Virus record (IMG/VR): IMGVR_UViG_3300045988_090087
From: a virus
DNA: 64,000 nucleotides
Strand: one strand, 5' to 3'
The notes under the pieces were generated by a model, which was not told the DNA's origin, searched no databases, and saw only the letters and a program-made list of their open reading frames with translations. Within the stretch, counting starts at the first letter, position 1, and every line of letters begins with the position of its first letter. Positions 3,378 through 54,778 of the stretch are shown piece after piece. The position numbers and the translations under genes were made by a program.

Positions 3378-3533
3378 ATGAAGAAATTACTTGTATTTAG
3401 TGTGTTATTTACACTCTTGAGTTGTTCTACTGGTTCAAATAATTCAGTAAATTCAACTTCAAATGATTCTATTAATGTTGATACTACAGTAGTTGATACT
3501 ACTGCTATTGATTCAACTGTATGTCCTGATTAA
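3378..3533 (+). CDS. small putative lipoprotein (51 aa)
   Basis: Hand translation MKKLLVFSVLFTLLSCSTGS...: signal peptide plus lipobox Cys; below ORF-track size cutoff. Confidence 0.5.
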   Translation: MKKLLVFSVLFTLLSCSTGSNNSVNSTSNDSINVDTTVVDTTAIDSTVCPD

Positions 3534-3544
3534 TCAGGACTTTC

Positions 3545-3625
3545 GTCTAGATAGCCAAGTGGTCAACGGCAGCAAGCTGTTAACTTGCCCCGAAAGGTTC
3601 CTAGGTTCGAATCCTAGTCTAGGCG
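3545..3625 (+). tRNA. tRNA with anticodon GTT (Asn codons) on a class-II-like body with a 12-nt variable arm
   Basis: Hand fold: acceptor gtctaga/tctaggc (one G-U), anticodon stem gcaag/cttgc, loop ctGTTaa, T arm ctagg-ttcgaat-cctag, discriminator G, 81 nt. Confidence 0.65.
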
Positions 3626-3636
3626 CAAAGACACAT

Positions 3637-3713
3637 GGAGTATTAAGCCCTGTTGGTAAGGGAACTAGACTGTCACTCTAGTAAAACTAAGGGTTCGAGT
3701 CCCTTATATTCCG
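3637..3713 (+). tRNA. tRNA-Asp (GTC)
   Basis: Acceptor ggagtat/atattcc, anticodon stem ctaga/tctag, loop ctGTCac, T loop ttcgagt; loop and T arm match the canonical bacterial tRNA-Asp pattern. Confidence 0.85.
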
Positions 3714-3858
3714 CAAATAATGGAGAGGACCTAGCATTTAACTAGGCGGTTGTTAGAGGTAGCGGTGGCGATCCACGAGTATGCCTGATAGCTCAATGTA
3801 TTATTAGAATATGGTCACGATAGTTCGCCCGTCTAATGCCATATTCGCCTTTATTTAA

Positions 3859-3931
3859 GCTTCAATAGCACAATTGATAGTGCAGCACTCTTGTAAAGTG
3901 CAGGTTATTGGTTTGAGTCCAATTAGAAGCT
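3859..3931 (+). tRNA. tRNA-Thr (TGT)
   Basis: 73-nt cloverleaf: D stem gcac/gtgc, anticodon stem gcact/agtgc, loop ctTGTaa, T arm attgg-tttgagt-ccaat; one A-A mismatch in the acceptor. Confidence 0.8.
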
Positions 3932-3943
3932 CTTTATTTATAT

Positions 3944-4016
3944 TTGAGGTGAGTGAAACGGCTTACACGTCTGTCTCATAAGCAGAAAACAGTGGGTTCA
4001 ACTCCCACACCTCGAA
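3944..4016 (+). tRNA. tRNA with CAT anticodon (elongator Met or Ile2)
   Basis: Anticodon stem tctgt/gcaga, loop ctCATaa, T arm gtggg-ttcaact-cccac, acceptor ttgaggt/acctcga. G at position 8 is atypical. No GGG/CCC initiator signature. Confidence 0.6.
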
Positions 4017-4055
4017 CTAAACGGTTATTGGTCTGAGTCCAATACCTACAACTAA
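4017..4055 (+). pseudogene. tRNA 3'-half remnant (T arm copy of tRNA-Thr)
   Basis: ggttattggtctgagtccaat matches tRNA-Thr 3904-3924 at all but one position; I could not pair any matching 5' half. Confidence 0.4.
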
Positions 4056-4072
4056 TTAATAAAATAAATAAT

Positions 4073-4549
4073 ATGAAAAAAACTTTTAATTATCAATCTG
4101 ACGCAAACTTTTATGATAAAAAGGATTTTATTATAGCTGTTTTAAAAAGCAAAATAAATAGGTTTAAAGAGTATGATGCTGAAAGAAAAAAGCATTATGC
4201 TGGATTAGAACAAAAAATCGGAGAATTAGAATCCTATATAGATGAATTAGAAAATGGACTTGGTATAGAATCTTTAAATAATAAGATTCAGTCTTTAGAA
4301 AATGAGATTGAGAAACAGAATCTTAAAATTAGAGAGTTAAGAGCTAAAGTTAATATATCTTTATTTGATAATACTAAGTCTTTTAGAGAATTAGAATCTA
4401 TGGCAAATAATTTGAAAGACTTTAATAGCATGAAATTAGCTATTAAAGGTCTCAAAAAACAGCTTAGAGATAATAAAAAAACTATATCTGATTTAGTATA
4501 TGAATTAACACAAGCTAAACTTAAAATAAAACAATTAACTGGAGAGTAA
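4073..4549 (+). CDS. hypothetical coiled-coil protein (158 aa)
   Basis: ORF with repeated LE/IE heptads; lies between tRNA genes. Confidence 0.65.
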   Translation: MKKTFNYQSDANFYDKKDFIIAVLKSKINRFKEYDAERKKHYAGLEQKIGELESYIDELENGLGIESLNNKIQSLENEIEKQNLKIRELRAKVNISLFDNTKSFRELESMANNLKDFNSMKLAIKGLKKQLRDNKKTISDLVYELTQAKLKIKQLTGE

Positions 4550-4559
4550 TCTCCAATTT

Positions 4560-4633
4560 GGGGCGTCGGCTCAAGTGGTCAGCACCTGCTTTGCACGCAG
4601 ACATTCTTAGGAGTTCGAATCTCCTACGCTCCA
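4560..4633 (+). tRNA. tRNA-Ala (TGC)
   Basis: Acceptor ggggcgt/acgctcc with the G3-U70 Ala identity pair, loop ttTGCac, T arm aggag-ttcgaat-ctcct. Confidence 0.8.
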
Positions 4634-4648
4634 CTAAAAAATATAAGT

Positions 4649-5392
4649 ATGAACATTAAAGAACTTACAAATAAAGAATTAATAAAATTATATAAGGAGC
4701 ATAAATGTTCTTTATAGGCTATAGAAAAAGATTTAGGATTAACTAAAAATTAGGCAGGAAGATTATTCAGAGCAAGAAATATTGATTATAAAAGTTTGAA
4801 AAATCAATATTTAATAGATTTAGAAATGGATTATTATAACCATCCAAATGTTTGTAAATATTGTGGAAATCCTTTACCTTACAAATATAAGGGAAGTTTT
4901 TGTAATCAATCTTGTGCGGCTTCCTATAATAACATTTAGAGAAGGACTTCAGAACATAAAAATAAAGGACCCCAAAAAAATTATCATTGTTTAAACTGTG
5001 GTAAAGAACTCAAATATGTTTCTGGAAATTATATGAAATATTGTTCTGCAAAATGTCAGACTGAATATCAACATAAAGAGTATATTAAACGATGGAAAAA
5101 TGGTGAAGAGACAGGTGTTACTGGTAAAACTGATATATCTACCCATATACGTAAATATTTAAAAGAAAAATTTAATAATTCTTGCCAAAAATGTGGGTGG
5201 AATTAGATAAATTATTTCACAGGTTTAGTACCATTACAAATCCATCATATTGATGGAGATTGTTTAAATAATAAAGAAAAAAATCTTTAGTTACTATGTC
5301 CTAATTGTCACGCTTTAACCGAGAATTATGGCAGTAGAAACAAAAATTCAAAGAGAACTTCTAGAAGAATACATTATGAAAATAACTATTGA
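4649..5392 (+). CDS. HNH homing-type endonuclease, readable only with 5 in-frame TAG codons as sense
   Basis: ATG 4649 to TGA 5390-5392. TAGs at 4715, 4751, 4937, 5204, 5288; no other stops. Cys-rich zinc-ribbon pairs and PLQIHHIDGD...NL(TAG)LLCPNCHA HNH core. Confidence 0.8.
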
Positions 5393-5714
5393 TACAGACA
5401 ATTTAGAAACATTAAAGTATAAAACTGAAGATGTTCCTATTTTAATGAAGACTTTCCAACAATTAATAAATAAATTAATGTATGAAGTAATAGGGAATTA
5501 TTATTCTGTAGACAATGTTCCTGAAGATACTCCAAAATGGGTAAAAGAAGAACTACTTAATGTAGGAAAAATCTGTTATATGGATGGGCATATGAATAAA
5601 GAATATGTCTTTAAAGGTATTCAAGAAACATTTGAGGATTATTATTATATATTAGAAGATAATAATAAAAAAATTTCTTATTCTTCATGCGTTGGAAAGA
5701 TATCTTATAAATAA
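5376..5714 (+). CDS. hypothetical protein
   Basis: ORF-track 5328..5714; start moved to ATG 5376 (MKITID...) because upstream codons belong to the HNH gene in another frame. Confidence 0.6.
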   Translation: MKITIDTDNLETLKYKTEDVPILMKTFQQLINKLMYEVIGNYYSVDNVPEDTPKWVKEELLNVGKICYMDGHMNKEYVFKGIQETFEDYYYILEDNNKKISYSSCVGKISYK

Positions 5715-5716
5715 AT

Positions 5717-5794
5717 GCAAGATTAGTGTAGCTGAAGGCGCATATCTGGCTTCCAACCAGAAGGCTTGCGTGGGTTTGATTCCCACATCTTGCA
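5717..5794 (+). tRNA. tRNA-Gly (TCC)
   Basis: Perfect acceptor gcaagat/atcttgc, anticodon stem tctgg/ccaga, loop ctTCCaa, T arm gtggg-tttgatt-cccac; unusually long (8 nt) variable region in my fold. Confidence 0.7.
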
Positions 5795-6194
5795 CTATGA
5801 TAAAGCTCTAGAATACTAGTTACAGGAGCAACGTAACTTATAGGGTGCCTCTCAACGATGCATACTCGCCTATTAGGTGTCGTAGAACCTACGAACTGGA
5901 ATGATTCGATGGTTTTTTGCATTCCTATAGAATCCTAAATAATAAAAATAGAGACCATGTCTCTAACAGGGGTGATTTACCTGGGATTCTTAATTTTTTA
6001 AACTCTCCTCCTAGATATTTTATAAGTTAAACTTTAAATTTGATTTATTATGATGAAAATTTTAAAAAGAACTTTAAAAGCATTTAAGAAGGGTTGGACT
6101 TGGTATGCTAATCAGTATTGTAGATTATACATGCCTCCAATTATTTAATCTTATTATTTAATTTGTAAGTACCAAAGGGGTACTTACTGATGTT

Positions 6195-6223
6195 GAGTCG
6201 GGCAATAAGCTCGACTTTTTTTG
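6195..6223 (+). terminator. rho-independent terminator
   Basis: 8-bp stem 6196-6203/6209-6216 followed by seven T; a second 9-bp hairpin lies at 6165-6187. Confidence 0.7.
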
Positions 6224-8660: not shown

Positions 8661-9160
8661 ACTTAGTTTGGTTAAAGTTAATAAAACGAATTTTAACTCA
8701 TAAGTATTATGTTGCTAAATATTGCTTTCAAATAGGATTATATTGGCAAGGTATTACTCATGATTTATCTAAATTTAGTTTTATAGAATTTTCAAGAGCT
8801 ATTAAGTATTGGGATGATAAAATGAGCTCTTTAGCGAATGAGTGCAGAATATTAGGATATAGTCAAACATTCCTTCACCATAGAGGAAGAAATCCTCATC
8901 ATTATGAATATTGGATACATTCCTTAGATAATGGAGGAATTCCTGCTAAAATGCCTAAAAAATATGTTCTAGAACTTATATGTGATTATTTAGCAGCAGC
9001 TAAAACATATGGAGCTGACCCTAGAAGAGAATATACATGGTGGCTTAAACAACAACCTCATATGAAAATCCACAAAAAAACTAAGAGTTATATAACTGAA
9101 GTGTTTTATAAATATAGTATAGGTTTAACATTAAAAGAATCAATTAATGGAAATTATTAA
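8657..9160 (+). CDS. hypothetical His-rich protein
   Basis: 167-aa ORF with HDLSK and HHRGRNPHHYEYW motifs; directly upstream of the NAD module. Confidence 0.6.
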   Translation: MNLVWLKLIKRILTHKYYVAKYCFQIGLYWQGITHDLSKFSFIEFSRAIKYWDDKMSSLANECRILGYSQTFLHHRGRNPHHYEYWIHSLDNGGIPAKMPKKYVLELICDYLAAAKTYGADPRREYTWWLKQQPHMKIHKKTKSYITEVFYKYSIGLTLKESINGNY

Positions 9161-10700
9161 TGCAACTGATGGCTATAAGCTTGGTCATCATCGTATGTAC
9201 CCAGAGGGTACACAAATGGTCTATAGTAACTGGACTCCTAGAAGTAATCGTTACTTCCCAGAAGCTACAGAAGGTTCTGTAGTATTTGGTATTCAGTACT
9301 TTGTAAAGAAGTATTTGATAGAGGAATTTAACAAATGGTTTGCTCTTCCTAAGGAAGAAGCTATTAAGCAATTTGCTTATCGTGTAGGTAACTTTGTAGA
9401 CCTTAATCAGGTTGGGACAAAGCATATTGAAGAACTTTATGATTTAGGATATCTTCCTATTGAAATTAAAGCTCTTCCTGAAGGTTCTATCTGTCCTATA
9501 AGAGTACCTATGATGACTATTAAGAACACTCTTCCTGATTTCTTCTGGTTGACTAATTACTTGGAAACTTTAATTAGTTGTACTCTATGGCTTCCTTGTA
9601 CTTCTGCAACAAGTGCTCGTCTCTATAAAAAGAGACTTATGGAACATGCTAGAAAGACTGGATTCCCAGAAGATGTAAATCTAGGTTTCTCTTGTCACGA
9701 TTTCTCAATGAGAGGTATGGCAGGACTTGATGCTGCTATTATTTCAGGTATGGCTCATATGACTTCATTCTGTGGTAGTGAAACAATTCCTGCTATTGAA
9801 GCAGTAGAGCATTATTACGATGCAGATGTTACTGAAGAACTTGTAGCTGCAACTGTCCCGGCTTCGGAACATTCAGTAATGTGCGCAGGAGGTGAGGATG
9901 GTGAGATTGAAACATACCGCCGTCTTATTAATGACTTATATCCAACAGGTATTATCTCAATAGTATCTGATACTTGGGATTTTTGGCAGGTAGTTGAGAA
10001 ATTCTTGCCTAAGCTTAAGGCAGATATTATGAAACGTGTTGGTCGAGTAGTAATTCGTCCTGATAGTGGTGACCCAGTGGATATTATTTGTGGTCTTCGT
10101 ACAAATCCTCACTATCATACTGCTATGAAAGAGGGTAAGTACTACTGTGATTTCAATCCATTTATGGATGATGATGAGAGTCATTATGTAGAAGTATCTG
10201 AAGGTCAGTATTATGGAGCATATTATATGCTAGGTAAAATCTTTGGATGGAATACTACTGTAAATGATTATCGTTATCCAAGTACTAAAGTAGGTTTGCT
10301 CTATGGAGATTCTATCACTCTGGAGCGTCAGCGTGATATCTATGCTAGATTGGAAAACGCTCATATGGCAGCTTGTAATCTTGTTCTAGGTATTGGATCT
10401 TATACTTATCAGTTTAAGAGTAGAGATTCTTTGGGTTTCGCAGTTAAAGCGACCGCATGCACCATTAATGGTAAACTTATAGAAATCTATAAGCACCCAA
10501 AGACTGATGATGGAACAAAGAACTCTCTTAAAGGTCTTATAAGAGTTGAAAAAGAGGATGGTAAGTATGTTGCTTATGACCAGCAGACTAAGGATGCAGA
10601 ACTACAAGGTTGTCTTAAAACAGTCTTTGTAGATGGAGAATTAGTAAGAGAATATTCTCTTTCTGAAATTCGTGAACGTGTAAATTCAACATTAGTATGA
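9147..10700 (+). CDS. nicotinamide phosphoribosyltransferase family protein (NAMPT/NadV-like, or Namat-like)
   Basis: 517 aa; N-terminal TDGYKLGHHRMYP and overall type-II PRTase pattern typical of NAMPT. Confidence 0.85.
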   Translation: MEIINATDGYKLGHHRMYPEGTQMVYSNWTPRSNRYFPEATEGSVVFGIQYFVKKYLIEEFNKWFALPKEEAIKQFAYRVGNFVDLNQVGTKHIEELYDLGYLPIEIKALPEGSICPIRVPMMTIKNTLPDFFWLTNYLETLISCTLWLPCTSATSARLYKKRLMEHARKTGFPEDVNLGFSCHDFSMRGMAGLDAAIISGMAHMTSFCGSETIPAIEAVEHYYDADVTEELVAATVPASEHSVMCAGGEDGEIETYRRLINDLYPTGIISIVSDTWDFWQVVEKFLPKLKADIMKRVGRVVIRPDSGDPVDIICGLRTNPHYHTAMKEGKYYCDFNPFMDDDESHYVEVSEGQYYGAYYMLGKIFGWNTTVNDYRYPSTKVGLLYGDSITLERQRDIYARLENAHMAACNLVLGIGSYTYQFKSRDSLGFAVKATACTINGKLIEIYKHPKTDDGTKNSLKGLIRVEKEDGKYVAYDQQTKDAELQGCLKTVFVDGELVREYSLSEIRERVNSTLV

Positions 10701-14561: not shown

Positions 14562-14893
14562 TGAAACTTTTAGATAGATTAATTTTAATATTAATTTTTA
14601 TTACTATTATAGGAGCTACTATCTTTTTATATAAAGGGTTTAAATCTACTACTGTAATGCCTACAGATACCTTAGAAAGAAAAATAGACTCATTAAATAG
14701 TAAGAAAAATTCTATTAAAGTTGATATCAATAAGTGTGATACTGCTATCTACTATAATAAAACTATCTATGTTAAAGAGAAGGACAATATTATTAAGCAG
14801 TCTCCTGATAGCGACATGCAGTTTTTCACAAACTACATTCAAGAAGTCGGGAGAAAACTTCTTATTGACACCGTATCAATTAAAAATAACTAA
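14561..14893 (+). CDS. N-terminally membrane-anchored protein (i-spanin-like topology)
   Basis: Single N-terminal TM (LILILIFITIIGATIFLY) followed by a polar domain. Confidence 0.55.
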   Translation: MKLLDRLILILIFITIIGATIFLYKGFKSTTVMPTDTLERKIDSLNSKKNSIKVDINKCDTAIYYNKTIYVKEKDNIIKQSPDSDMQFFTNYIQEVGRKLLIDTVSIKNN

Positions 14894-15134
14894 TCTTATT
14901 TTTAATGAGCATAAATATTTACTAGTAAATGATAGTCTACAAAAAATTCAAATAAATAACTACAAATCTTTAGTAAATACGCTGGATAGTACGCTAACAT
15001 ATAAAAATTATCAAATAAAGATTCAATCTGATAAAAATAATGAATTGTATATACAAAATAAAAAATTATCAAAATTGAATTATTTATTTGGAGGTATAAG
15101 TATATTATCTATAATATGTGCTCTAATACATTAG
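14769..15134 (+). CDS. putative lipoprotein in the +1 frame overlapping the previous gene (o-spanin-like arrangement)
   Basis: MLKRRTILLSSLLIATC: signal peptide plus Cys. There is no ATG in this frame downstream of the overlap, so the start must lie inside 14561..14893. Ends in TAG. Confidence 0.45.
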   Translation: MLKRRTILLSSLLIATCSFSQTTFKKSGENFLLTPYQLKITNLIFNEHKYLLVNDSLQKIQINNYKSLVNTLDSTLTYKNYQIKIQSDKNNELYIQNKKLSKLNYLFGGISILSIICALIH

Positions 15135-15697: not shown

Positions 15698-16684
15698 ATG
15701 ACAACAGTTTTAGGTGATAAACTCAATCAAGCTTTTGAAGCTAAGAATAATGATGTAGAAACATTTCTCTGGAAAGGTTCCAGAAAAATTGTAGATGGTG
15801 AACGCATTCAGTCTTCCATGAAAATGGTAGATATGACTGAAGAAGAATTACGTAAAGCATATAAACATTGTGAATCAATGCTTTATAGTGACAACTATGA
15901 AAATCCTGGACGACGAGTTTTGTTGGAACAGATTGAAGATCAAAGAACTCGCTGTAATGCTGAGTTGTTCTTAATTTGGCTATTGTACCCAGGTGAAGGT
16001 AGTACTAGACAAGGTATTGTAAGAACTAGTTTCTTTAATATGCTCAATCAGCAGATTACTGCTCAGGCAGAACAGTTTGCTAAAGAGAATGCAGAAAGTG
16101 GTGAGGGCGAGACAAATGTTAGTGCTATTGCAGAGACTCTCTTTAAAGAGTGGACTCTTAATGATATTATGAATAGTGATGAAGATTCATTTACCATGTT
16201 TGCTTCATTACCATTGTATATCGTTAGAGAAGCTTGTTTATCTGCTTTAGGTAAATGTGTCCGTAAACACATTACTCTTACATTTATTACTGAGCTTGGA
16301 TTGTGGTTTACACGTTCTGAGTTATTAGAATTAAATAAAAAAGACGAGAATGGTCGTTTAGTAGATAGAATTAAGCAAGTTGCTGAACTTCTAAATATTA
16401 AATTGAGAGACCCTAAGAATCCTGAAGACAGAAAAGGTCTTGTTTTAAAAATTGATGATAGAAAAGGCTTAACTCTAAAAGAGTTTAGCGCAATGCTTAC
16501 CTTCCGTAAGGATAAATATGATAAGCGTTATAATGATCTGACTAAAGTACAATTGGAAACCTTAAGAGATAAAGTTTTACTGCATCTCGAAAATAAGGTT
16601 AGATGGCAAGCTTCAGAGTGGGAGAAGCGTATTAAACAAATCAAAGCAGTAGCTGATTATAATGGCTACAAACTCTCTGATTGA
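15698..16684 (+). CDS. hypothetical protein (328 aa)
   Basis: Long ORF upstream of, and overlapping, the helicase gene. Confidence 0.65.
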   Translation: MTTVLGDKLNQAFEAKNNDVETFLWKGSRKIVDGERIQSSMKMVDMTEEELRKAYKHCESMLYSDNYENPGRRVLLEQIEDQRTRCNAELFLIWLLYPGEGSTRQGIVRTSFFNMLNQQITAQAEQFAKENAESGEGETNVSAIAETLFKEWTLNDIMNSDEDSFTMFASLPLYIVREACLSALGKCVRKHITLTFITELGLWFTRSELLELNKKDENGRLVDRIKQVAELLNIKLRDPKNPEDRKGLVLKIDDRKGLTLKEFSAMLTFRKDKYDKRYNDLTKVQLETLRDKVLLHLENKVRWQASEWEKRIKQIKAVADYNGYKLSD

Positions 16685-16793
16685 AGGAGAACTATTTCAT
16701 AAAATCACTAGAGATGAACGACAAGAAGAGTGTCGTAAAAAATGGATAAAAAATCGTTGTGTGGGGACAATAGTTGCGTCTACTGGCTTTGGT
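16662..16793 (+). CDS. SF2 (DEAH-box/SNF2-like) helicase, exon 1
   Basis: Ends ...GTIVASTGFG, the first half of a Walker A loop; the frame then runs into unrelated sequence. Confidence 0.65.
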
Positions 16794-17115
16794 ACTGTAA
16801 AAGCGGGTCATATACCTGTTAATTACGATGCCGTTCCGATAGAGGAATCTTCGGAATTATCATCGAGCAAAATCGGTAGAAGCCCTATAGAGGGTAATAC
16901 CGAGGTAATAGAAGAAATTAAAGAATCTTCTACACCGTACAGCATAGAGAATGAAACTAATAAATAGTCTAGTTAATAGCTAGACTATTTTTATTAGAAT
17001 ATAATTTCTCCACGAGTGTTCGATACCCCAACTGAAATAAGTGGGTAAAAATTTATGCGGGACTTACTAGTAATAGTAAGAAGTATAGATAAAAAACTAT
17101 ACGATAACAAAATCG
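16794..17115 (+). mobile_element. intervening sequence in the helicase gene, putative group I intron (322 nt, no ORF)
   Basis: Upstream exon ends in T, the element ends in G, and joining restores GFG-KS Walker A. I did not recognise classic P7 motifs. Confidence 0.5.
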
Positions 17116-21398: not shown

Positions 21399-22169
21399 AT
21401 GAATTTAAATTTTGGTGGTCTTGGTGATATTAATCCTACAAGTAAGAAAGGTCTTCGTCCTTATGGAATTTATCTCGTTCAGTTAAAAAGTGTAGAAACT
21501 AAGGAAGGTCAAGGTAAACAAGACCCTAGTACAACTTGGAAATCTCTGGTACTTCATTTTGAAGGAGAACAAGGAACTTATCAAGAATCATTGTTTTATC
21601 CTAATGAAAGTTCTGCTAAAAGATATGAGGGTAAGAGAAAGGATTCTAAGGGTGTAGAATTCCCATATGTACTTCCTTCAGCATTTGAACAGCTTAAAGG
21701 TTTTATGCTGCATATTATAACAGTAGTAGGTGGTGATAAAGCTAAAGAATTGTTTGTAACTAAAGCTCCTACTTGTAAGAGTACTGACCAATTCATGCAG
21801 CTTTTCCAGGCAGTATTGACTAAGTATTGTATGAATAAAAACTTTTATTTAAAGCTTAGCGGTCGTAAGGAAAAGAAAAAGGATGAAAAGGGAATCTCAA
21901 AGGAAACTGGCAATGTATTTGCTAAGATTCCTGATATTGGAGCTATTAATAGTGATGGACAGTTCTATATCCGTGATAATTTTGCTAGCTTAGAGGAAGA
22001 TAAATTGTCATTCTCTAGTTATGAGATTAAGCAGAAAGAGGATATGGAGAAGCGTAAGCCTACTGCTCCCATGCCAGCAGCTGATTCAGAAGAGGCTAAA
22101 TCTATCGACTCTACTGAAGGCAAGGAGGCTCAAGATGAAGACTTCGATGCTATGCTGGCAGATATGTAG
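21399..22169 (+). CDS. hypothetical protein, possible ssDNA-binding protein
   Basis: Replication-module position and acidic C-terminal tail (DEDFDAMLADM); stop is TAG immediately followed by TAA. Confidence 0.4.
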   Translation: MNLNFGGLGDINPTSKKGLRPYGIYLVQLKSVETKEGQGKQDPSTTWKSLVLHFEGEQGTYQESLFYPNESSAKRYEGKRKDSKGVEFPYVLPSAFEQLKGFMLHIITVVGGDKAKELFVTKAPTCKSTDQFMQLFQAVLTKYCMNKNFYLKLSGRKEKKKDEKGISKETGNVFAKIPDIGAINSDGQFYIRDNFASLEEDKLSFSSYEIKQKEDMEKRKPTAPMPAADSEEAKSIDSTEGKEAQDEDFDAMLADM

Positions 22170-28492: not shown

Positions 28493-28758
28493 TGAAGGAC
28501 ATAAGACTTCCAGAAATATCCGATAAATTTATAGATATTTCTGATATAAATGAGAATACTTCGGGTATTATTTTAGCATACAAATGTAATAAACCAGTTG
28601 GATTCATTGGCTATAACAATGAAGATATTACATGGGAATATTTCGATGATATTACTATAGATTGTAGTTTTAAACGTAATGAAAATTTGCTAGCATTACT
28701 AAAAGCTATAATGTCAAATAATTACGCCGATAGTTTTAAATTAATTGATTTTAAATAA
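28492..28758 (+). CDS. hypothetical protein, paralog family member 1
   Basis: Shares the pattern I-D-[IL]-x(2)-I-x(2)-N-x(2)-G-I-I-[IL]-A-Y-K with 28758..29042. Confidence 0.55.
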   Translation: MKDIRLPEISDKFIDISDINENTSGIILAYKCNKPVGFIGYNNEDITWEYFDDITIDCSFKRNENLLALLKAIMSNNYADSFKLIDFK

Positions 28759-29042
28759 TGAAATATATTACTATTCCTAAAAGTAGTGATACTACTATAG
28801 ATTTAGCAGCTATTACTAATAATTATAAAGGTATAATTATCGCTTATAAAGAAGGTATGGCTGTAGGAAGCATTTCATATTGTTCAGATACCGATCTGTG
28901 GTATTTTTGTGACAATATAGATAATGGTCAATTTGATACATGTAAAGGTACATTATTAGAATTAGTCAATGACTTAATAGATACTAAACATATAGCAGAT
29001 AATTTTAGATTATTAGAATTTTATACTAACAACGATGATTAG
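28758..29042 (+). CDS. hypothetical protein, paralog family member 2
   Basis: Tandem paralog of 28492..28758 (TAATG junction). Confidence 0.55.
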   Translation: MKYITIPKSSDTTIDLAAITNNYKGIIIAYKEGMAVGSISYCSDTDLWYFCDNIDNGQFDTCKGTLLELVNDLIDTKHIADNFRLLEFYTNNDD

Positions 29043-30757: not shown

Positions 30758-31972
30758 ATGTTATTTATGGTAATAAAGAGAGACGGAATTAAAGAAGAGT
30801 TTAACAGAAACAAAATTAGAGATGCTGTACTAAAGGCTTTTGGAATTACCCAAAATTCTAGTAAGACAATGGACGAAGATATTTACAGAGCAGTTACTGA
30901 GATAACTAATTCTGTAGTAGAAACTGAAGATCAATCCATTGAGGATATTCAAGACCAAATTGAAGAACTCTTAATGGATTTAGGATATTACAACGTAGCT
31001 AAAAAATATATTCTATATCGTAAAGAACGTGAAGATATTAGAAATCATGCTACTAGGGATATTAAATTTATTCATAATTTTGTAAAGTCTGATAATACTG
31101 CTAATGCTACTATTGATGATAATAGTAATGTTGGAACTAAAGGTATTGGAGTATTAAACGCTGAAATACATAAAGTCGATAATAAACTTACTAATACAGA
31201 ATGGTGGGAAAGTTTTGTAAAGAAGAGAGACCCTAACTTTAATATAAAAGTTATGAGGAATGACTTTAAAACTATTTTGTATCCTCATGACTCATCTTCT
31301 CAAGTAGGAGAACCATATTGTATGGCAGCTTCTATGTATCCTTTCTTGTTGTTTGGATTAGAGAAATTAGGAGGTAAATCAGCTGTTCCAAAGAACCTTG
31401 ATTCATTCTGTGGTATTTATGTAAATTTAAACTTTGCATTAGCCTCTGAAATTAAAGGAGCAGTAGCTACTCCTGAGTTTCTGATGTATATGGATTATTT
31501 CTGTAGAAAAGAATGGGGAAATAATTATTATCTCAAACCAAGTGTAAAAATAACTACAGATTATTGTATAAAACAGAAAACTATTGGCAGTCAAATTGAT
31601 CAATATTTCCAACAGGTAACTTATTCCATTAATCAAATAGCAGGAGCTAGAGGAATGCAGTCCCCATTTACAAATTTTTCATTCTTCGATAAATATTTCT
31701 TTGAAGGTATGTTTGGAGAATTTGTATTTCCAGATGGAACAAAGCCAGAATGGAATTCTACTAATTGGTTACAAAGACGTTATTTACATTGGTTAAATCA
31801 AGAAAGATTAAAATGTATCTTAACATTTCCTGTGTGTAGTTATGCTTGCTTAACAGATAAGGAAGGTAATTTTAAAGATTTAGATACTTTCCATTTTATA
31901 TGCAATGAATATGCTCAAGGAAATTCTTTCTTTACTTATTTGTCTCGTAGTGTAGATAGTTTAAGTTCATGT
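30758..31972 (+). CDS. nrdD: anaerobic ribonucleoside-triphosphate reductase NrdD, N-extein
   Basis: ATP-cone VIKRDGIKEEF..KI at the N-terminus; ends ...LSSC immediately before the intein Cys. Confidence 0.85.
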
Positions 31973-33031
31973 TGCTTTTCTAAAGATACTAAGTTTTTAT
32001 GGAAATCTAGCACTTCTGGAGTACATCTAACTACCTTTGAAGAATTTAAAAATCTTCCATATAAAAATATGAAAGAGAATTTTAAAGTATTTCACAATGG
32101 CTCTTGGGTAGCTGGCAAAGTTATAGATTTACCTAATCGTCCTATGTATAAAGTTACCACTTATAATAATAAAGAGTTTATTATGACTGATAATCATATA
32201 AATGTAACTTTACAAGGAGAAAAATCAACAGAACAGTTAACTATTAATGATTACTTATTATTCAATACTTCTAAGTTAAGTGCTATTCCAGATAATAATG
32301 AACATTTAACTTACGCCCAAGGTTATGTAATTGGATCATTTTTAGGTGATGGCTCTTTTAGTTCTGAAATAAATGGAGTTATCTATGATATTAATTTATC
32401 CCAAAATGAACAAAAATATAAACGTTCTAAATTTTATTGGAATCTCGCATTAAAACAAATGGGATATGAACCTAATGTGGTTTTAAAAGAAGTAGTAAAT
32501 AATGTTTATCCATTAAGGGTATCTAATAAAAATTTAGTTGCTTTTATTCAAAAATGGACTAATTGGTATAGAGGAACTTATGCTCATAATAAGAAATTAA
32601 ACATGAATTGTCTTCTTCAATCTGTAAAATTTAGAGAAGGTATACTACAAGGATGGTATGATACTGATGGGGGAAATTCTAACAGATGCTACACGACTTC
32701 TCCTGAATTAGCAGAAAATATGGAAGCCTTAATAACTTCTTTAGGAATGCAAAGCATTATTAATATATCAGATAGAACAGATGAAGAAGTTATAATACGC
32801 GGGGAACATTATAAAAGAAATTACCCATTATATTGTGTAAGATGGTATGAAGATGCAAATCATAGAGCTAATAAAGACAAGACACATAGTTGGATAAAAT
32901 ATAATAATGGAATATACTTTAAAATAAAATCTATCGAACCATATGATTACAATGATAGAGTATATTGTATAGAATGTAAAAATGCTTCTGAACCATATTT
33001 TACATTACCAAGTGGATTAATTACTCATAAT
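31973..33031 (+). mobile_element. intein with LAGLIDADG homing endonuclease domain (353 aa) inside NrdD
   Basis: Starts CFSKDT, ends ...LITHN followed by Cys. Internal LAGLIDADG motifs VIGSFLGDGSF and ILQGWYDTDGG. Excision restores SSC-CRLQN. Confidence 0.75.
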
Positions 33032-34045
33032 TGTCGTCTTCAAAATGCCGTACAAGAAAATACATTTAATACTACTAATGGTCAAATAGGTATAATGACT
33101 GGTAGTAAAAATGTTATTACTCTTGATTTAAATAGAATTATTCAGGATTGGCAGCATACTTGGTCTGATTATAAAGACCATATTGATGTTAACACCAATA
33201 GATGTTGTTTCCCAGTAGATTGGATTACACATAAAGACTTCCAAGAAGGAATTAAGAAATATATAGAAAATATTCTTGAAAGAGTTTATTTGTATCAGTA
33301 TGCTTATAACGACTTAATGCACTGGTGCAAAGATCATCATTTATATGCTGCTTATGATGCTGGTTTTATTAATCTTGATAAACAATATTTAACTATTGGA
33401 ATTAATGGCTTAAATCAGGCTGCTGAATACTTAGGAATGGAATGTAATAATAATATTTATTATAAGACATTCTGTAGATTGATATTCAGTACTATAAAAG
33501 AACAGAATAAGAAACATAAAACTAAAACAGCTCAATTTAATACTGAACAAGTACCCGCAGAAAGTGCTTCAGTAAAACTTTATAATAGAGATAAAGCTGA
33601 TGGTTATTGGATTCCTACAGACACTAATCTGTATGCTAGTTATATATTTAAACCTAATGATACACATATAAGTATACTTGATAAAATTATACTTCATAGT
33701 TCTGAATTCGCTGCTGATGAATTAGATGGAGGTTCTGCTTGTCATCTTAATTTATCTGAACATTTGAGTCAGAAACAATATGAGTATTTACTTAAATTTA
33801 TGGCTAAAGTAGGTTGTAAATATGCTACTTTTAATATTCCTAATTGTGAATGTGAAGAGTGTCATTTTATAGCAAAACAACCGTTTAGTAAATGTCCTAA
33901 ATGTGGTAGTACGCATGTAAGTCTATGGGATAGAATTATCGGCTATCTTACAAAGATTTCTAACTGGAGTGCTGCTAGACAACTAGAAGGTAGTACTAGA
34001 AGTAGAAAGAATGAATTAGAAATTAATATAGAATTAGCACAATGA
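33032..34045 (+). CDS. nrdD: NrdD, C-extein
   Basis: C-terminal Zn ribbon CECEEC...CPKCGS and glycyl-radical motif RIIGYL. Confidence 0.85.
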   Translation, partial: CRLQNAVQENTFNTTNGQIGIMTGSKNVITLDLNRIIQDWQHTWSDYKDHIDVNTNRCCFPVDWITHKDFQEGIKKYIENILERVYLYQYAYNDLMHWCKDHHLYAAYDAGFINLDKQYLTIGINGLNQAAEYLGMECNNNIYYKTFCRLIFSTIKEQNKKHKTKTAQFNTEQVPAESASVKLYNRDKADGYWIPTDTNLYASYIFKPNDTHISILDKIILHSSEFAADELDGGSACHLNLSEHLSQKQYEYLLKFMAKVGCKYATFNIPNCECEECHFIAKQPFSKCPKCGSTHVSLWDRIIGYLTKISNWSAARQLEGSTRSRKNELEINIELAQ

Positions 34046-36767: not shown

Positions 36768-37051
36768 TAAATTTAATATGGAGTGAAATTCGACAAGTAT
36801 CTGTTGAAGAAGATACCCTTTACTCAGCTTTACTTTACATATATCGCACCTATATAGGAAGTGAAGACGATAGCATAAACGAGATTATTGAAGGCATTCA
36901 AGACAATATAGAAAATTATATAGAAGAATTAATTGAAGAAGCTTCCCCTTATGATTATTCTAATGGAGATATAGATTGCGAAGATATTACAGAATTAGTT
37001 ACTGGAGATAAGTTTTTAGAAAAATTTAAAGAATGGTATTTGAATGAGTGA
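36764..37051 (+). CDS. hypothetical acidic protein
   Basis: 95-aa ORF. Confidence 0.5.
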   Translation: MINLIWSEIRQVSVEEDTLYSALLYIYRTYIGSEDDSINEIIEGIQDNIENYIEELIEEASPYDYSNGDIDCEDITELVTGDKFLEKFKEWYLNE

Positions 37052-37751
37052 AATATTAATTTTAGGGGATATTCACGGTCGTAGTTTTTGGAAAGAACCA
37101 TGCAATAATTGGACAGGTAAAATTATATTCTTAGGGGATTATCACGACCCTTATGGAGAATATATAGTAGAAGAACCTGATAAAGTAGAATCTTTAACTA
37201 ATCTTAAAGAATTAGTTGCTTTTGTAGAGAATAGACGTAAGATTTCTGATGTTATATGCCTATTAGGTAATCATGAGCTTCCATATTTCAATGGAAATGG
37301 TAAATGCAGATTTGATTATTGGGAACAAAAAGAAGTAAAAGAGTTAATTAGCAGTTTAAATCCTCAATTATATTACATATATGAAGATTTAACTACTAAA
37401 GAGCCTCATAAATATTTATTCTCTCATGCAGGTATTACTAAAGATTGGATAGACTATAATAATCTAGAATTAAAAGACTTAAATAATATAGATATAACTA
37501 ATCTTAGTGCTCTTGATCATATCCCTTATTCTAGAGGAGGGTATAATAAATATGGCTCTTGTGTCTGGAATGATTTAGAAGATTTTCAACTGCAAACTCC
37601 ATATAAAGGTTATTATCAAATATTTGGGCACTCTTGGGGAGGAAGAATTGAACCTGTAATCACAGATAAATATGCAATGCTAGATTGTTGTAAACCATTT
37701 GTGTTAGATACTGAAAATAATGAATTAAAAGAATGGAAATTAAATTCATAG
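37044..37751 (+). CDS. PPP-family Ser/Thr or bis(5'-nucleosyl)-tetraphosphatase-like metallophosphatase
   Basis: ILGDIHGR, GDYHDP, GNHE, GH motifs. Confidence 0.75.
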   Translation: MSEILILGDIHGRSFWKEPCNNWTGKIIFLGDYHDPYGEYIVEEPDKVESLTNLKELVAFVENRRKISDVICLLGNHELPYFNGNGKCRFDYWEQKEVKELISSLNPQLYYIYEDLTTKEPHKYLFSHAGITKDWIDYNNLELKDLNNIDITNLSALDHIPYSRGGYNKYGSCVWNDLEDFQLQTPYKGYYQIFGHSWGGRIEPVITDKYAMLDCCKPFVLDTENNELKEWKLNS

Positions 37752-37981
37752 GAACTTTAAAGATAGATACTTCTGAATATTGGGATTGGATTAGAAGTTT
37801 ATTCCCTCCAACATTATCTAATGTAGAAGTATTTAATAAATGGATGCCAGAAGCTCGCATTTATACTTATAGATTTTTAAAATTACGGGGTTATAAAAAT
37901 AATAACCCCTCAGATTCTGGTCTAAGAGAAGTTATAGACTATATAGCACAATATATAACTAAATTATCTTTAGAATCATGA
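37733..37981 (+). CDS. hypothetical protein
   Basis: 82-aa ORF. Confidence 0.5.
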   Translation: MEIKFIGTLKIDTSEYWDWIRSLFPPTLSNVEVFNKWMPEARIYTYRFLKLRGYKNNNPSDSGLREVIDYIAQYITKLSLES

Positions 37982-38247
37982 AAATTTCATATCAATATCT
38001 CACAACAGATGAATTAGATGTAAGTATTAAAGATATATTTGATTATATAAAATTCTTACATACTGATTCTGATATGTCTATTAAGTCCACTTTATCTTAT
38101 GTGGAAGAGTGGCAATTAAATAAAGAAGAAATTATTCAAGCTTTATATGGGACTCTGGTATATAACGATGTTAGTCCGTCTTTTTATAGAACAATAGAAG
38201 AAAAGTTAATACCTTATTTAAGACGTGCTGATGGAGAACCCTCTTAG
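37978..38247 (+). CDS. hypothetical protein (ends in TAG)
   Basis: 89-aa ORF; TAG at 38245-38247. Confidence 0.5.
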   Translation: MKISYQYLTTDELDVSIKDIFDYIKFLHTDSDMSIKSTLSYVEEWQLNKEEIIQALYGTLVYNDVSPSFYRTIEEKLIPYLRRADGEPS

Positions 38248-45335: not shown

Positions 45336-46556
45336 ATGATTTATTTAGTTACCAAGGTTAAAGCTTTATTCAAATCTTCTAAATATGAATGTATTTCCAT
45401 AGAAAGAAGTAAGGAAATTATTAATTCTATGAAAAAAATTAGAGGATTAGATACTGAAACTATGGGACTAAATCCTCATACTAAAGCATTACTAACAGTT
45501 CAGATAGGTACTAAAGAAAATCAAGTAGTAATTGATTGTACTACTATAAACATTTGGGAATATAAAGATATATTAGAAGATTCTACTATTCTATATATTT
45601 TAGCTAATGCTAAATTTGATATTCAATTCTTCTTTAAACATAACATTATATTATCTAAAGTATGGGATGTAATGTTAGCTGAAAAGATTAGATATTTGGG
45701 ATATCCTAAAGGTAGTTTCCATGCTGACTTAAAGACTCTTGAATACAAGTATCTTAATAAATATATGGATAAAACTGTTCGAGGTAAAATTACTAAAGTT
45801 GGTCTAACTGAGGAAGTAATAGTTTATGCAGCTAATGATGTAGTAGATTTGGAAGATTTAATGAATGCCCAAATAAAAGCACTAGAAAAAGAAGATTTAG
45901 TAAAGGCAGTACAATTAGAGAATAGATTTGTCCTTCCATTGGCTTATATGGAATGGTGTGGAGTAAAATTAGACGTAGAAAAATGGAAAGCTAAAATGGT
46001 AAAAGATGCTAAACGTTTAAAGGTTGCCCTAACTAAATTAAATAATTGGGTAGTAAAACACTATGGAAATGATTCTAGATTTACTAAGGTAGATTTACAA
46101 GGGGATTTATTTTCAGGATTTAATACTGACCCACAGTGTACTATAAATTGGAATAGTGCAGCTCAAGTAATTCCATTATTTAAAGCTATTGGAATAAATA
46201 CTTCTACTGTAGATAGTAAAACAAAGAAATTAAAAGATTCTGTAGATGCTAAATTATTAGAGCCTCAAGCTAAGGATTTTGAAATTCTTCCTATTTATCT
46301 AGATTATAAGGAAGCTCAAAAAGTATGTTCTACTTATGGACAGAACTGGTTAGACCAAATAAATCCTGAAACTGGTAGAGTATATACTAAGTTTAATCAG
46401 CTAGGTACTAATACTGCTAGAATATCTAGTGGTGGAAAAGATAAGAATGCTAAAATAGAATATGTAAATTTTCTTAATCTTCCAGCAGATCCAGAAACTA
46501 GAAGTTGTTTTATTGCAGAAAAAGGTAACTCTTGGATTTCCATAGACTACTCGGGT
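45336..46556 (+). CDS. family A DNA polymerase with 3'-5' exonuclease, exon 1
   Basis: Exo motifs GLDTETMGL and YAANDV; ends in polymerase motif A ...SIDYSG. Confidence 0.85.
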
Positions 46557-46878
46557 AAAAAATAAACATATAAACTATAACATTTTATATATTATACTTT
46601 GGATAATTTATCTGTAAATAAATCAGAGGATGTGTTAAAAATGTTTTATAGTTTATATCATAATGCTCATTATTTTCTAAAAAGAAAATATGAAAAATTT
46701 GGCCCCCTTGTAAGGAAACTTACAGGTGAAAACCTCGTAAATTCAGTTAATGAACGGGCATTATCAAAGACTGAGCCAAGCCTTATAATAAAGGAAGGTG
46801 CAGAGACTAGAAACGAGGAGCCTAAAATAAATGATTAAATTTATCATGGCTGAGGTATAGTCCAGCGTGTTTACGTAG
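46557..46878 (+). mobile_element. group I intron 1 in polA (322 nt, no homing endonuclease)
   Basis: 5' exon ends in T and the intron ends in G. Conserved core elements cagagactagaaa and gaggtatagtcc (P7 strands). Splicing gives DYSG-QEKFIMA. Confidence 0.7.
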
Positions 46879-47544
46879 CAAGAAAGTTTCATTATGGCTT
46901 CCATTTCTAATGACAAAGCTTTAATACATGAATTAATGGAAGGAAGTGGGGATTTGCATTCTCTAACTGCTTATATGAGTTATCCTGATCAAATACCAAG
47001 AGATACAAAAATAACAGAAATTAAAGAAAAGTATCACCATCTTAGACAGCTAGCTAAGAAAATTGAGTTTGGATTCAATTATGGTGGAGACTTTAATACT
47101 ATACATAGGAATTTAGGTATCTCTATAGAAGAAGCTAAAAAAATATATGAAAATTATATGTCGGGTTTCTCAGGATTAGCTAAGTACCAAGAGTATTGTA
47201 GAAAGATAGTAATGGAAAAAGGCTATATACTTCTAAATCCTATAAGTAAATATAGAGCACATATATATGATTTTGAATCTCTACGTTCAATGCAAGAAAA
47301 AATGCAAGATAGGGAATTTTGGAAGTATTATAGAGAAATGAAACGAGAGTCTCCTAACTGTGATACAGTACAAGAAGTACGAGACTTCTTTAAGAAAAAG
47401 GGTGAGTGTGAAAGGAATAGTATAAATTATAGAATACAACATACTGGAGCTTTATGTTATAAAGTAAGTATGATTTATTTCTTTAAATGGATAATAGAAA
47501 ATAATCTTTTTAATAAGGTTTTAATTACTGTTACCCCCTACGAT
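46879..47544 (+). CDS. family A DNA polymerase, exon 2
   Basis: GDLHSLTA and motif B RQLAKKIEFGFNYGG; ends ...TPYD. Confidence 0.85.
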
Positions 47545-48409
47545 AAATAATCTTGTCGTAGTAAAACGATGTTAATTGCTTGGAACTCCTAAAGATTTAA
47601 TTACTAAATTATTGAAATAATAAACTAGTAAAAATATTAAATATGATTTTACCTCGGTTAAAAGAAATGGACAATAAGCAGCTTTATAATTTTACAAGAG
47701 AACAAACTCAAGTATTTTTAACAGGACTGTTAGGTGATGGATGTATATCCACTACAAATAGTGGTAGTTATATTTATACCACAAATTGTAAACATCTTGA
47801 ATATTTAGAATTTAAAAAGAAATTATTAGGTAAAGGGAATATTAAACTTCAAGAAAAAAATGGCTATAGTCAAACTCCTATATATACTATGTATGGAGGA
47901 GCTTACCCAGAATTATTTGAGTTTAAAAAATTTACTGTTCAAGATGTTATTGAAAATCTAGATTTACTTGGGTTAGCATTATGGTTTTATGATGATGGCA
48001 GCCTTCATAAAAGAGATTTATATTATAATTTAAATACTCAAAAGTTCCCAAAGTATATACAAGAAGGAATTTTTATTCCATGGTTTGATTCCTTGGGCAT
48101 TAAAGCTAATTTAAGGCACGATACAAAAAGGGAAAAAGAATTGTATTATTTAGGAATTAATAAATATGAAGGAGCTAATATTATTAGTGAAATACTATCA
48201 CGTTATCCATTAGATTGTTACTCTTATAAATTATGGAGTTCAGAGACTATCCTGAAATGGAGTAAGCTGCAAGAGCAGGTGAAAAGCATCGATGAAAATC
48301 TTACTAATAGGCAGTTAGCTTATAAGTGGAGATTTTTATAAGATATAGTCCGAACCTATATGAAAGTATAGGAGAATATATGGAATCGATATATTCGTAA
48401 CAATATATG
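47545..48409 (+). mobile_element. group I intron 2 in polA (865 nt) carrying a LAGLIDADG endonuclease ORF
   Basis: 5' exon ends in T and the intron ends in G. Core elements gttcagagactat and aagatatagtccgaacc. Splicing gives motif C ...YD-EINCE. Confidence 0.7.
47643..48341 (+). CDS. LAGLIDADG homing endonuclease (intron-encoded)
   Basis: Two LAGLIDADG motifs: FLTGLLGDGCIS and LALWFYDDGSL. Confidence 0.8.
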   Translation: MILPRLKEMDNKQLYNFTREQTQVFLTGLLGDGCISTTNSGSYIYTTNCKHLEYLEFKKKLLGKGNIKLQEKNGYSQTPIYTMYGGAYPELFEFKKFTVQDVIENLDLLGLALWFYDDGSLHKRDLYYNLNTQKFPKYIQEGIFIPWFDSLGIKANLRHDTKREKELYYLGINKYEGANIISEILSRYPLDCYSYKLWSSETILKWSKLQEQVKSIDENLTNRQLAYKWRFL

Positions 48410-48571
48410 GAGATTAATTGTGAAGCACCTATAGAAATAGCTGAAAAAGTAGCTATTAGACTTCATGCTATTATGGTTAGAGCAGGAGAAATATTTTGTA
48501 CTAGATGTAAGTTAGATGCAGATATCTCTAGATGTAAAGATGGGACATTACCTAATTACTGGATTCATTAA
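48410..48571 (+). CDS. family A DNA polymerase, exon 3
   Basis: EINCEAPIEIAEKVA... through TAA 48569-48571; completes motif C and the C-terminus. Confidence 0.7.
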   Translation, partial: EINCEAPIEIAEKVAIRLHAIMVRAGEIFCTRCKLDADISRCKDGTLPNYWIH

Positions 48572-48572
48572 A

Positions 48573-48806
48573 ATGGAAATAACTTACACTTGTAACGACT
48601 ATTCATTATATATCGACGGCAAAGAATTCGTTGATATAGATTACGACAAACAAAAAGAAATTTGTCATAAATTAGTAGATAAAGTTTCCGAAGGAGTTTT
48701 ACAAAGATTTATAGAAATTGCTTGTACCGGAATGGGCGAGTATGAACAATTAGATTATTGTGAAACTCATGGAGAATTTGTTGATAAATACGTAATAAAT
48801 ATATGA
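48573..48806 (+). CDS. hypothetical protein
   Basis: Track ORF 48516..48806 trimmed to ATG 48573 (MEITYTCNDY...), just after the polA stop. Confidence 0.5.
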   Translation: MEITYTCNDYSLYIDGKEFVDIDYDKQKEICHKLVDKVSEGVLQRFIEIACTGMGEYEQLDYCETHGEFVDKYVINI

Positions 48807-54579: not shown

Positions 54580-54778
54580 ATTATCAGATAAGGAGTGTCA
54601 AGCAGCTAAAGAGTTTATAAAAGAACATAATAAGCAGTGCGACACTCCTTATTCAGGAGCTAATGGTTGTCCAAAATTTAGTTATATATTCTCACCTTTT
54701 GGACTAGGTACTTTTGTAGGAATAAGATGTAATGTTTGTAAGAATGAAAAGGATATAACTGATATTAATACATGGTAA
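54569..54778 (+). CDS. small Cys-rich protein (start uncertain)
   Basis: Cys pairs C..C / CNVC; non-ATG track start. Confidence 0.4.
   Translation: MVFKLSDKECQAAKEFIKEHNKQCDTPYSGANGCPKFSYIFSPFGLGTFVGIRCNVCKNEKDITDINTW

Follow-up and report, generated by a model that had tools for sequence, protein, structure and literature searches.

The 64,000-nucleotide stretch of viral DNA analysed here (IMG/VR record IMGVR_UViG_3300045988_090087; the whole stretch is called the window) carries, in an island of transfer RNA (tRNA) genes, an HNH endonuclease gene whose reading frame is interrupted by five TAG codons and by no other stop. We propose that it is a free-standing homing-endonuclease gene of the tRNA island, fully translated only when UAG is decoded as glutamine (Gln), and we hold this reading to be probable. 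The gene would then be a clean example of a selfish nuclease that depends on the code switch of the phage that carries it. Below, loci in other contigs are given L numbers and database proteins P numbers.

An amber-interrupted frame on a standard-code arm

The gene lies on the plus strand, from an ATG at 4649 to a TGA at 5390–5392, and has 247 codons plus the TGA. Its frame holds no TAA or TGA, and TAG occurs at codons 23, 35, 97, 186, and 214 (Table 1). The remaining five frames over the same interval have 8–31 TAA or TGA codons each. At the trinucleotide frequencies of the window, whose G+C content is 29%, the probability that 247 codons lack TAA and TGA is about 7e-8, and in 20,000 shuffles no frame without these codons reached the length of that of the HNH gene. 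For five random stops to be TAG without exception, the probability is about 1e-3. Apart from the five TAGs, the open reading frame (ORF) is intact. Translation confirms every statement that a first-pass annotation, made from the letters, had offered about the frame and the five TAG positions. It likewise confirms that there is no full standard-code ORF here, the standard-code listing in this frame having only pieces of 47 and 57 amino acids. A standard-code annotation thus splits the gene into these two pieces, and gene callers that apply one code per genome block would miss it, since a TAG=Gln gene sits within a standard-code arm.

The contrast with the surrounding arm is sharp. The plus arm extends to about 55.3 kb and encodes functions of replication and nucleotide metabolism, including NAMPT, NrdD, a helicase, a ligase, and PolA; on the opposite strand a TAG-recoded late arm begins. 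When TAG codons are counted against CAA and CAG codons in non-nested ORFs of at least 80 codons, the ratio is 102:50 in the late arm, 5:7 in the HNH gene, and 0:401 internally in the other plus-arm ORFs. The difference between the HNH gene and its plus-arm neighbours is significant (Fisher, 8e-9), and the earlier claim that this is the only recoded gene of the plus arm holds for ORFs of at least 80 codons. The remaining plus-arm TAGs are true ORF ends or lie upstream of true starts. TAG ends 7 of the 72 standard-code ORFs, and in each of the seven a TAA follows 0–12 codons further on. The same TAG-then-TAA arrangement is described in the Lera phage paper (PMC12386605). As a side observation, these seven genes would gain only a short tail if their TAG were read as Gln.

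The predicted product

With TAG read as Gln, the predicted product is a complete HNH endonuclease, as the first-pass annotation had proposed. The Pfam HNH family (PF01844) scores 23.6 bits with TAG written as Q, against a cut-off of 21.4, and 20.6 bits, just below the cut-off, with TAG written as X. The treble-clef family DUF2116 scores 29.3 bits with TAG as Q against a cut-off of 26.8, and it is also reported with TAG as X. PHROG 1271, “HNH endonuclease”, matches at 4e-27 over residues 17–236, a span that includes all five TAG sites. The family is large, with 12,612 representative homologs at E ≤ 1e-3.

The translation contains the core motif PLQIHHIDGD..NN..NL-TAG-LLCPNCH and three sets of paired cysteines, C69xxC72...C85xxxC89, C114xxC117...C132xxxC136, and C179xxC182...C217xxC220. 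Across 53 homologs, H199, H200, N207, N208, N212, H221, C179/C182, and C217/C220 are invariant or nearly so; also invariant in the subfamily are all twelve zinc-ligand cysteines, Q197, and Q214. An AlphaFold (AF2) model was made with 53 homologs and with the database protein P0151 as the query, which differs from the window protein by H18Y. Its mean predicted local distance difference test (pLDDT) score is 88.4. In the model, three short N-terminal helices form a helix-turn-helix-like unit, followed by two zinc-ribbon units, each with a helix after it, and a ββα-metal unit is predicted at residues 197–222 (strands 197–200 and 213–216; helix 218–222). The best local Foldseek matches are the HNH domains of CBASS Cap5, PacI, and Cas9, and none has E ≤ 0.001 for the whole elongated model. 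A sequence search of the PDB with the HNH protein gave marginal McrA matches only (E 0.16).

Glutamine as the meaning of TAG

The first-pass annotation had read TAG as Gln from an “NLQLLC” motif and had expected the TAG columns to be dominated by Gln in HNH homologs. In the wide family, tabulated from query-anchored phmmer alignments of 150 distant representatives, this expectation failed for four of the five columns. Column 214 is the sole TAG column in which Q comes first (Q44, E39, T18, I14, R13). Column 186 has E75, K36, and Q8, and column 97 has G36, K20, and Q6; no Q is found among the 9 sequences aligned at column 23 or the 15 at column 35. A simple log-odds score over the five columns places glutamate (Glu, 7.6 bits) above Gln (1.4 bits). 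This preference, together with the “Pyl” label that ARAGORN gives by default to the tRNA(CUA) of relatives, is what can be said for TAG coding for some other residue in this gene, such as Glu, lysine (Lys), or pyrrolysine. We consider such a reading extremely improbable. In view of the DNA of recoded homologs, the wide-family table is not taken as refuting Gln.

In the close subfamily, whose members are 45–81% identical, 117 of 119 sequences have Q at column 214; at column 186 the counts are K51, Q32, and E24, and at column 23 Q comes first. The NLQLLC motif describes the close subfamily well, while the wide family is mixed at that position (Q44 vs. E39). The close-subfamily table is partly circular, since the database translated proteins with TAG as Q; P0151 and P0270 are the window gene itself in the database, with Q written at all five TAG sites. 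For this reason, the DNA of homologs was checked.

The DNA of eight recoded homologs (L009–L016) was taken from contigs of 87–222 kb. All eight have in-frame TAGs, from 2 to 8 per gene, and none has an in-frame TAA or TGA. In L009, the window’s TAG codons 35, 186, and 214 are CAA or CAG, and the TAGs of L009 itself match CAA or CAG of the window at codons 53, 109, 137, and 180. The window gene and the eight homologs were aligned blind to TAG, which was coded as X. The alignment has 22 TAG columns, in which the top partner of TAG is Gln (CAA/CAG), with 74 pair counts vs. 39 for Lys and 19 for Glu. The columns of invariant Gln in CQKCGW, PLQIHH, and NLQLLC carry TAG in three, three, and two of the nine genes, respectively. 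When the partner spectrum of TAG is fitted to each amino acid’s own spectrum, Gln comes first by about 170 nats. The positions of TAG change fast between homologs in this alignment.

The late arm offers an independent comparison. In a comparison with MT835492, the closest public phage record, 110 TAGs of the window’s late arm are kept and seven are changed: three are to or from CAA, a two-base change, and one each involves CAG, AAG, GAG, and TCT. The exchange of TAG with CAA or CAG at invariant Gln columns and the double changes between TAG and CAA both argue against a residue other than Gln. So does the metaproteomic demonstration of TAG=Gln for crAss-like phages (PMC9523058). Given the swaps among recoded homologs and the independent late-arm changes, the reading of TAG as Gln in the HNH gene is well supported, and the first-pass annotation is borne out on this point by the eight homologs where the wide-family check had failed it. 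Full-length translation of the frame requires UAG to be read as Gln.

Separately, one in-frame CAA of the window in a late-arm ORF (55742–63998, minus strand) is TAA in MT835492, which could be a nonsense change or an alignment edge.

The source of UAG decoding

No tRNA(CUA) was found in the 64-kb window or in the 121.6-kb record MT835492, and no ORF of either has a release-factor-like GGQ motif. The MT835492 record is incomplete, since contigs of 170–180 kb carry the identical HNH protein. A “tRNA-Pyl(cta)” that ARAGORN called in MT835492 at a relaxed threshold (L003 38679–38765) was dropped, as it had no Rfam support.

Close relatives of about 176 kb do carry a tRNA(CUA) gene. One relative, IMGVR_UViG_3300045988_070932 (176,108 bp), was recognised by matches to two MT835492 query proteins that are 88% and 99% identical. 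A walk along this contig led to a tRNA(CUA) at L185 3062–3133 on the late-gene strand (Rfam tRNA, 63.6 bits), which is present also in L186 and L188. The tRNA(CUA) gene of L187 and L191 is interrupted within its anticodon, with about 220 nt inserted after nucleotide 35 (L187 2292–2586), and that of L192 and L193 has an insertion of 1003 nt in the anticodon, coding for a TAG-free HNH protein (L192 728–1802). Rfam gave no group I intron match for the insertions in these suppressor tRNA genes. We conclude from these predicted tRNA genes that the lineage carries an amber suppressor tRNA.

Other tRNA genes of the phage group were seen alongside. Among more distant relatives (L195–L198; L089, L091, L150), some have tRNA(UCA) and tRNA(CUA) side by side and others have tRNA(UUA). 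This variety suggests that different or multiple stop reassignments may exist within the group. In addition, a second tRNA island, upstream of the window’s left end, has tRNA-like genes whose six-base anticodon loop contains GUA (L090 1864–1936 and L093 3708–3780).

Recurrence in other recoded phages

The HNH gene lies within a tRNA cluster at all eight homolog loci. The gene immediately before it is a tRNA-Ala(TGC) in L010, L012, and L013; in L014, one small ORF separates the upstream tRNA-Ala(TGC) from the HNH gene. In L011 and L015, a tRNA-Gly(TCC) follows immediately after the HNH gene. The neighbours of the HNH genes are mostly without in-frame TAG. Three loci have one or two neighbours with several TAGs, as follows: a GIY-YIG gene with three in L016, a 255-residue ORF with five in L015, and a 401-residue ORF with eight in L013. 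The tRNA island of MT835492 also has a GIY-YIG gene, with four TAGs, one of which is at the same codon of the GIY-YIG motif as in L016. At the position of the ATG start of the L016 copy, the MT835492 copy has ACG.

Recoding is, as judged from these loci, typical of free-standing nucleases of tRNA islands and not of every selfish nuclease. The nine homologs repeat one arrangement, that is, a tRNA island, recoding, and mostly TAG-free neighbours, which makes them a tractable test case for the hypothesis that recoding serves temporal control.

A mobile gene, live or in decay

The ratio of nonsynonymous to synonymous substitution rates (dN/dS; Nei–Gojobori, window vs. L009) is 0.11 overall, 0.10 for codons 24–247, and 0.05 for codons 187–247. 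Since the ratio is 0.10 after the first TAG, the downstream sequence evolved as protein, and we read these values as purifying selection on the protein encoded downstream of the TAGs. An identical HNH protein (P0270) is found on at least 24 contigs, those of 170–180 kb among them.

A comparison with MT835492 by blastn delimits a cassette of about 1.2 kb that includes tRNA-Ala, the HNH gene, a 112-codon ORF (ORF112), and most of tRNA-Gly. MT835492 has no cassette. It has about 45 nt of a single different tRNA-Ala at that site, with flanks 93–98% identical to those of the window. When the window is compared with L006 and L007, the cassette is 0.5–0.8% diverged and the flanks about 3–6%.

Several points weigh against our proposal. 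L006 keeps the five TAGs and has an 11-nt deletion at codons 3–6; L007 has frameshifting indels of −13, −47, −23, and +5 nt and a nonsense codon; and L005 has a 23-nt deletion in common with L007. Given such damaged, near-identical copies, the gene is dispensable, and the window copy could itself be recently inactive. The suppressor tRNA(CUA) is seen in close relatives only, outside the window, and its similarity to phage tRNA-Glu, tRNA-Tyr, and tRNA-Gln is ambiguous for amino-acid identity. Other nuclease ORFs are TAG-free, namely the LAGLIDADG ORF at 47616–48341, the NrdD intein, and the HNH inside the suppressor tRNA gene of relatives; since TAG-free selfish nucleases exist, recoding is no general rule for such elements. 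Finally, the timing and the target of the nuclease are ones that we infer.

The damaged copies speak for a pseudogene reading, in which the window copy would be what is left of a decaying homing endonuclease and its TAGs would be premature stops. In addition to L005, L006, and L007, the 90% cluster contains 188-residue forms starting at M60 as well as 222- and 114-residue forms beside those of 247 residues, and a cassette missing from MT835492 would also fit. Yet the window copy is without frameshift, TAA, or TGA in DNA of low G+C content, a state with the very small chance probability given above. Moreover, all five interruptions are TAG, though the main Gln codon, CAA, would mutate to TAA. 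The TAGs fall at conserved Gln columns, dN/dS stays low after the first of them, and the same full-length protein recurs on many contigs. We therefore find a pseudogene highly unlikely.

A different possibility is that the HNH nuclease has been domesticated and serves the phage, for example in the upkeep or amplification of the tRNA locus against host anti-tRNA defences, or as a packaging aid. The tie to tRNA-Ala(TGC) and tRNA-Gly(TCC) is kept across divergent phages, purifying selection between lineages is strong, and SegB of T4-like phages has recently been reported to amplify anti-defence loci (PMC13096335). However, close relatives that look intact in other respects lack the gene or have a broken copy, and a cassette less diverged than its flanks fits recent lateral spread; we consider domestication unlikely.

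To return to the homing endonuclease, the combination of presence and absence, decay, and low cassette divergence is what an invasion–decay cycle of such an element would predict. We conclude from these comparisons that the HNH gene is mobile and dispensable. The first-pass annotation had called it a selfish nuclease, a description that now gains support from the absence of the cassette in MT835492, the decayed copies, and the low divergence of the cassette.

Expression and timing

We propose the following course of events. In a host using the standard code, the ribosome would stop at codon 23, releasing a 22-residue peptide. The nuclease would appear only with suppressor activity, together with the recoded late proteins. 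It would then cut cassette-free alleles of co-infecting relatives, probably at or near a tRNA gene, and the cassette with its flanking tRNA genes would be copied in by recombinational repair. Late, suppressor-gated expression, as the first-pass annotation suggested, is something that we reasonably infer.

The position of the first TAG is regular. It lies within codons 9–24 in all nine homologs. Of the 12 Gln sites up to codon 24, 10 are TAG, vs. 25 of 79 elsewhere (Fisher, 0.001), with at least four separate columns involved. The statistic ignores shared descent, a limit to be set among the points against the proposal. The early-TAG pattern is a hint of selection for an early block to translation.

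It is tempting to go further and to propose that amber recoding is a selected timing switch of free-standing homing endonucleases in code-switching phages. A TAG within about the first 24 codons would be maintained by selection, the HNH and GIY-YIG families would have converged on it, and the split suppressor tRNA would join the mobile elements and the code switch in one circuit. If this were true, no nuclease would be made until the phage’s own suppressor tRNA is expressed. We regard this extension as speculative and rather doubtful.

The gene may instead work as proposed while its TAGs are a neutral by-product and no evolved timing device. Where TAG is read as Gln late in infection, any gene that is not needed early can drift from CAG or CAA to TAG, and a dispensable mobile nuclease is just such a gene. 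The gene is dispensable and often decaying; TAG makes up 5 of its 12 Gln codons, a share not distinguishable from the 102 of 152 in the late arm (Fisher, 0.11); TAG positions turn over quickly between homologs; and other nuclease ORFs of the same genome are unrecoded. All of this would be expected of drift. Less readily explained in this way are the retention of a TAG within the first 24 codons by all nine homologs, with the N-terminal enrichment given above (its p of about 0.001 is uncorrected), and the repetition of the pattern in two unrelated nuclease families of tRNA islands, HNH and GIY-YIG. Neutral drift is a serious possibility, although we would not put it at even chances.

Organization of the tRNA island and the window

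The HNH gene was said at first to sit between tRNA genes, and tRNA-Ala(TGC) and tRNA-Gly(TCC) are indeed its neighbours (Table 1). The tRNA-Ala(TGC) gene is missed by ARAGORN at its default setting and by Rfam over the whole window, and it reaches 37.5 bits in a local Rfam run. ORF112, which has no Pfam or PHROG match, is called beside the HNH gene in L017–L020. Terminator-like hairpins, which are consensus matches only, bracket the whole island at about 3523–3540 and 6195–6217; the consensus scan gave none between the tRNA genes and the HNH gene.

Table 1. Positions of the HNH gene, its in-frame TAG codons, and associated features (window coordinates unless a locus is named).
Feature	Position	Strand	Remarks
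HNH endonuclease gene	4649–5392	+	Predicted helix-turn-helix ~8–42; zinc ribbons C69–C89 and C114–C136; ββα-metal HNH C179–H221
In-frame TAG, codon 23	4715–4717	+	TAG also in L009 and L013; Q in 24/92 aligned close-subfamily sequences
In-frame TAG, codon 35	4751–4753	+	CAA/CAG in L009 (80% identical); mostly S, T, or A in the rest
In-frame TAG, codon 97	4937–4939	+	Lies in the linker that follows zinc ribbon 1; L009 has K in this variable column (G, K, E, Q)
In-frame TAG, codon 186 (CGWN-TAG-INY)	5204–5206	+	CAA/CAG in L009, L015, and L016; TAG in L011; others K/E
In-frame TAG, codon 214 (NL-TAG-LLCPNCH)	5288–5290	+	Q in 117/119 close homologs; CAA/CAG in 7/8 recoded homologs (DNA), TAG in L014
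Cassette (~1.2 kb)	4563–5768	+	tRNA-Ala, HNH, ORF112, most of tRNA-Gly; blastn, window vs. MT835492
tRNA-Ala(TGC)	4560–4634	+	Ends 14 nt before the HNH start; left edge of the variable cassette; ARAGORN relaxed threshold, Rfam tRNA 37.5 bits
ORF112 (112 codons)	5376–5714	+	Overlaps the HNH stop by 17 nt; no TAG; moves with the cassette
tRNA-Gly(TCC)	5717–5795	+	Right cassette junction within the T arm, ~5768/5769
Upstream part of tRNA island (Asn, Asp, Thr, Met)	3545–4017	+	Content differs among relatives
Terminator-like hairpin and T-run	6195–6217	+	Downstream of the island; consensus match only
Start of TAG-recoded late arm	55742–64000	-	Three ORFs with 49, 43, and at least 10 in-frame TAGs
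Plus-arm genes with a TAG stop	14769–15134, 16662–16967, 21399–22169, 28758–29042, 37044–37751, 37978–38247, 54772–55314		
GIY-YIG genes in tRNA islands of relatives	L001 (MT835492) ~3958–4565; L016 2120–2752		4 and 3 TAGs, respectively

Further mobile elements were noticed on the plus arm. The gene for PolA (family A) is split (45336–48806): the part at 45336–46565 stops at “...IDYSG”, and that at 46831–47550 restarts with “QESFIMAS...”. MT835492 lacks the 333 bp between the parts (46555–46888), which fits a mobile intron. The split parts are followed by a LAGLIDADG_2 ORF without TAG (47616–48341); no exon with the last polymerase motif was located. NrdD (30758–34045, 1095 codons, no TAG) holds an intein with a LAGLIDADG_3 domain at about residues 440–758. 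The region of the NAMPT (nicotinamide phosphoribosyltransferase) gene, 8752–10605, is missing from MT835492, which has insertions of its own of 0.3–0.9 kb relative to the window, at about 16.8, 19.1, 33.9, and 54.1 kb of the window.

The late arm (55742–64000 of the window, minus strand; 63,721–121,526 of MT835492) consists mostly of very large ORFs, of up to 3401 codons in MT835492. A PHROG search with the large late-arm proteins gave nothing but one weak major-head-protein match.

Comparison with known systems

Reassignment of TAG or TGA in late genes, with suppressor tRNAs, is established in gut phages (10.1101/2021.08.26.457843; PMC7886860; PMC9523058). In “Agate” phages, Borges et al. (10.1101/2021.08.26.457843) reported an early gene with a group I intron whose endonuclease is TGA-recoded, and they proposed that the in-frame stops postpone the endonuclease until late infection. 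The HNH gene resembles the Agate case: both are selfish endonuclease ORFs, preferentially recoded, in the early region of stop-recoded phages. In the Agate phages, however, TGA is read as Trp and the endonuclease is intron-encoded within an early gene, whereas in the window TAG is read as Gln and the gene is free-standing between tRNA genes and of the HNH family.

Yutin et al. 2021 (PMC7886860) described the Zeta group of crAss-like gut phages, with genomes of 145–192 kb and intron ORFs with reassigned stops. Their genes form two opposed blocks, stop codons are reassigned in the late genes, and the genomes carry suppressor tRNAs along with numerous introns and inteins. The genome to which the window belongs, of about 176–180 kb with a split PolA gene and an NrdD intein, is alike in size and architecture only, and the example given by Yutin et al. 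differs in being TGA inside PolB intron ORFs. We found no statement in that paper on free-standing nucleases in tRNA islands.

The best functional analogue of the HNH gene, in location and presumed behaviour, is SegB of T4, a free-standing homing endonuclease in the tRNA cluster by whose action the tRNA region is inherited preferentially in mixed infections (PMC2330249). SegB differs in being a GIY-YIG protein of a standard-code phage; its cleavage and homing are demonstrated, whereas those of the HNH gene are proposed. T4 MobE (PMC2790892) is a free-standing, mobile, intergenic HNH homing endonuclease and is alike in its family, in its mobility, and in lying between genes. It occupies another genomic niche in a phage of standard code, and a likeness in the zinc-ribbon pair or the helix-turn-helix is not established by comparison.

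Recoded endonuclease ORFs in recoded phages have thus been described before. The HNH gene is a clear example of them and no new kind of system, and it leaves the existing picture of recoded gut phages unchanged. What is added here is modest: a free-standing HNH family tied to tRNA-Ala and tRNA-Gly, its recurrence across divergent recoded phages, and the regularity of the early TAG.

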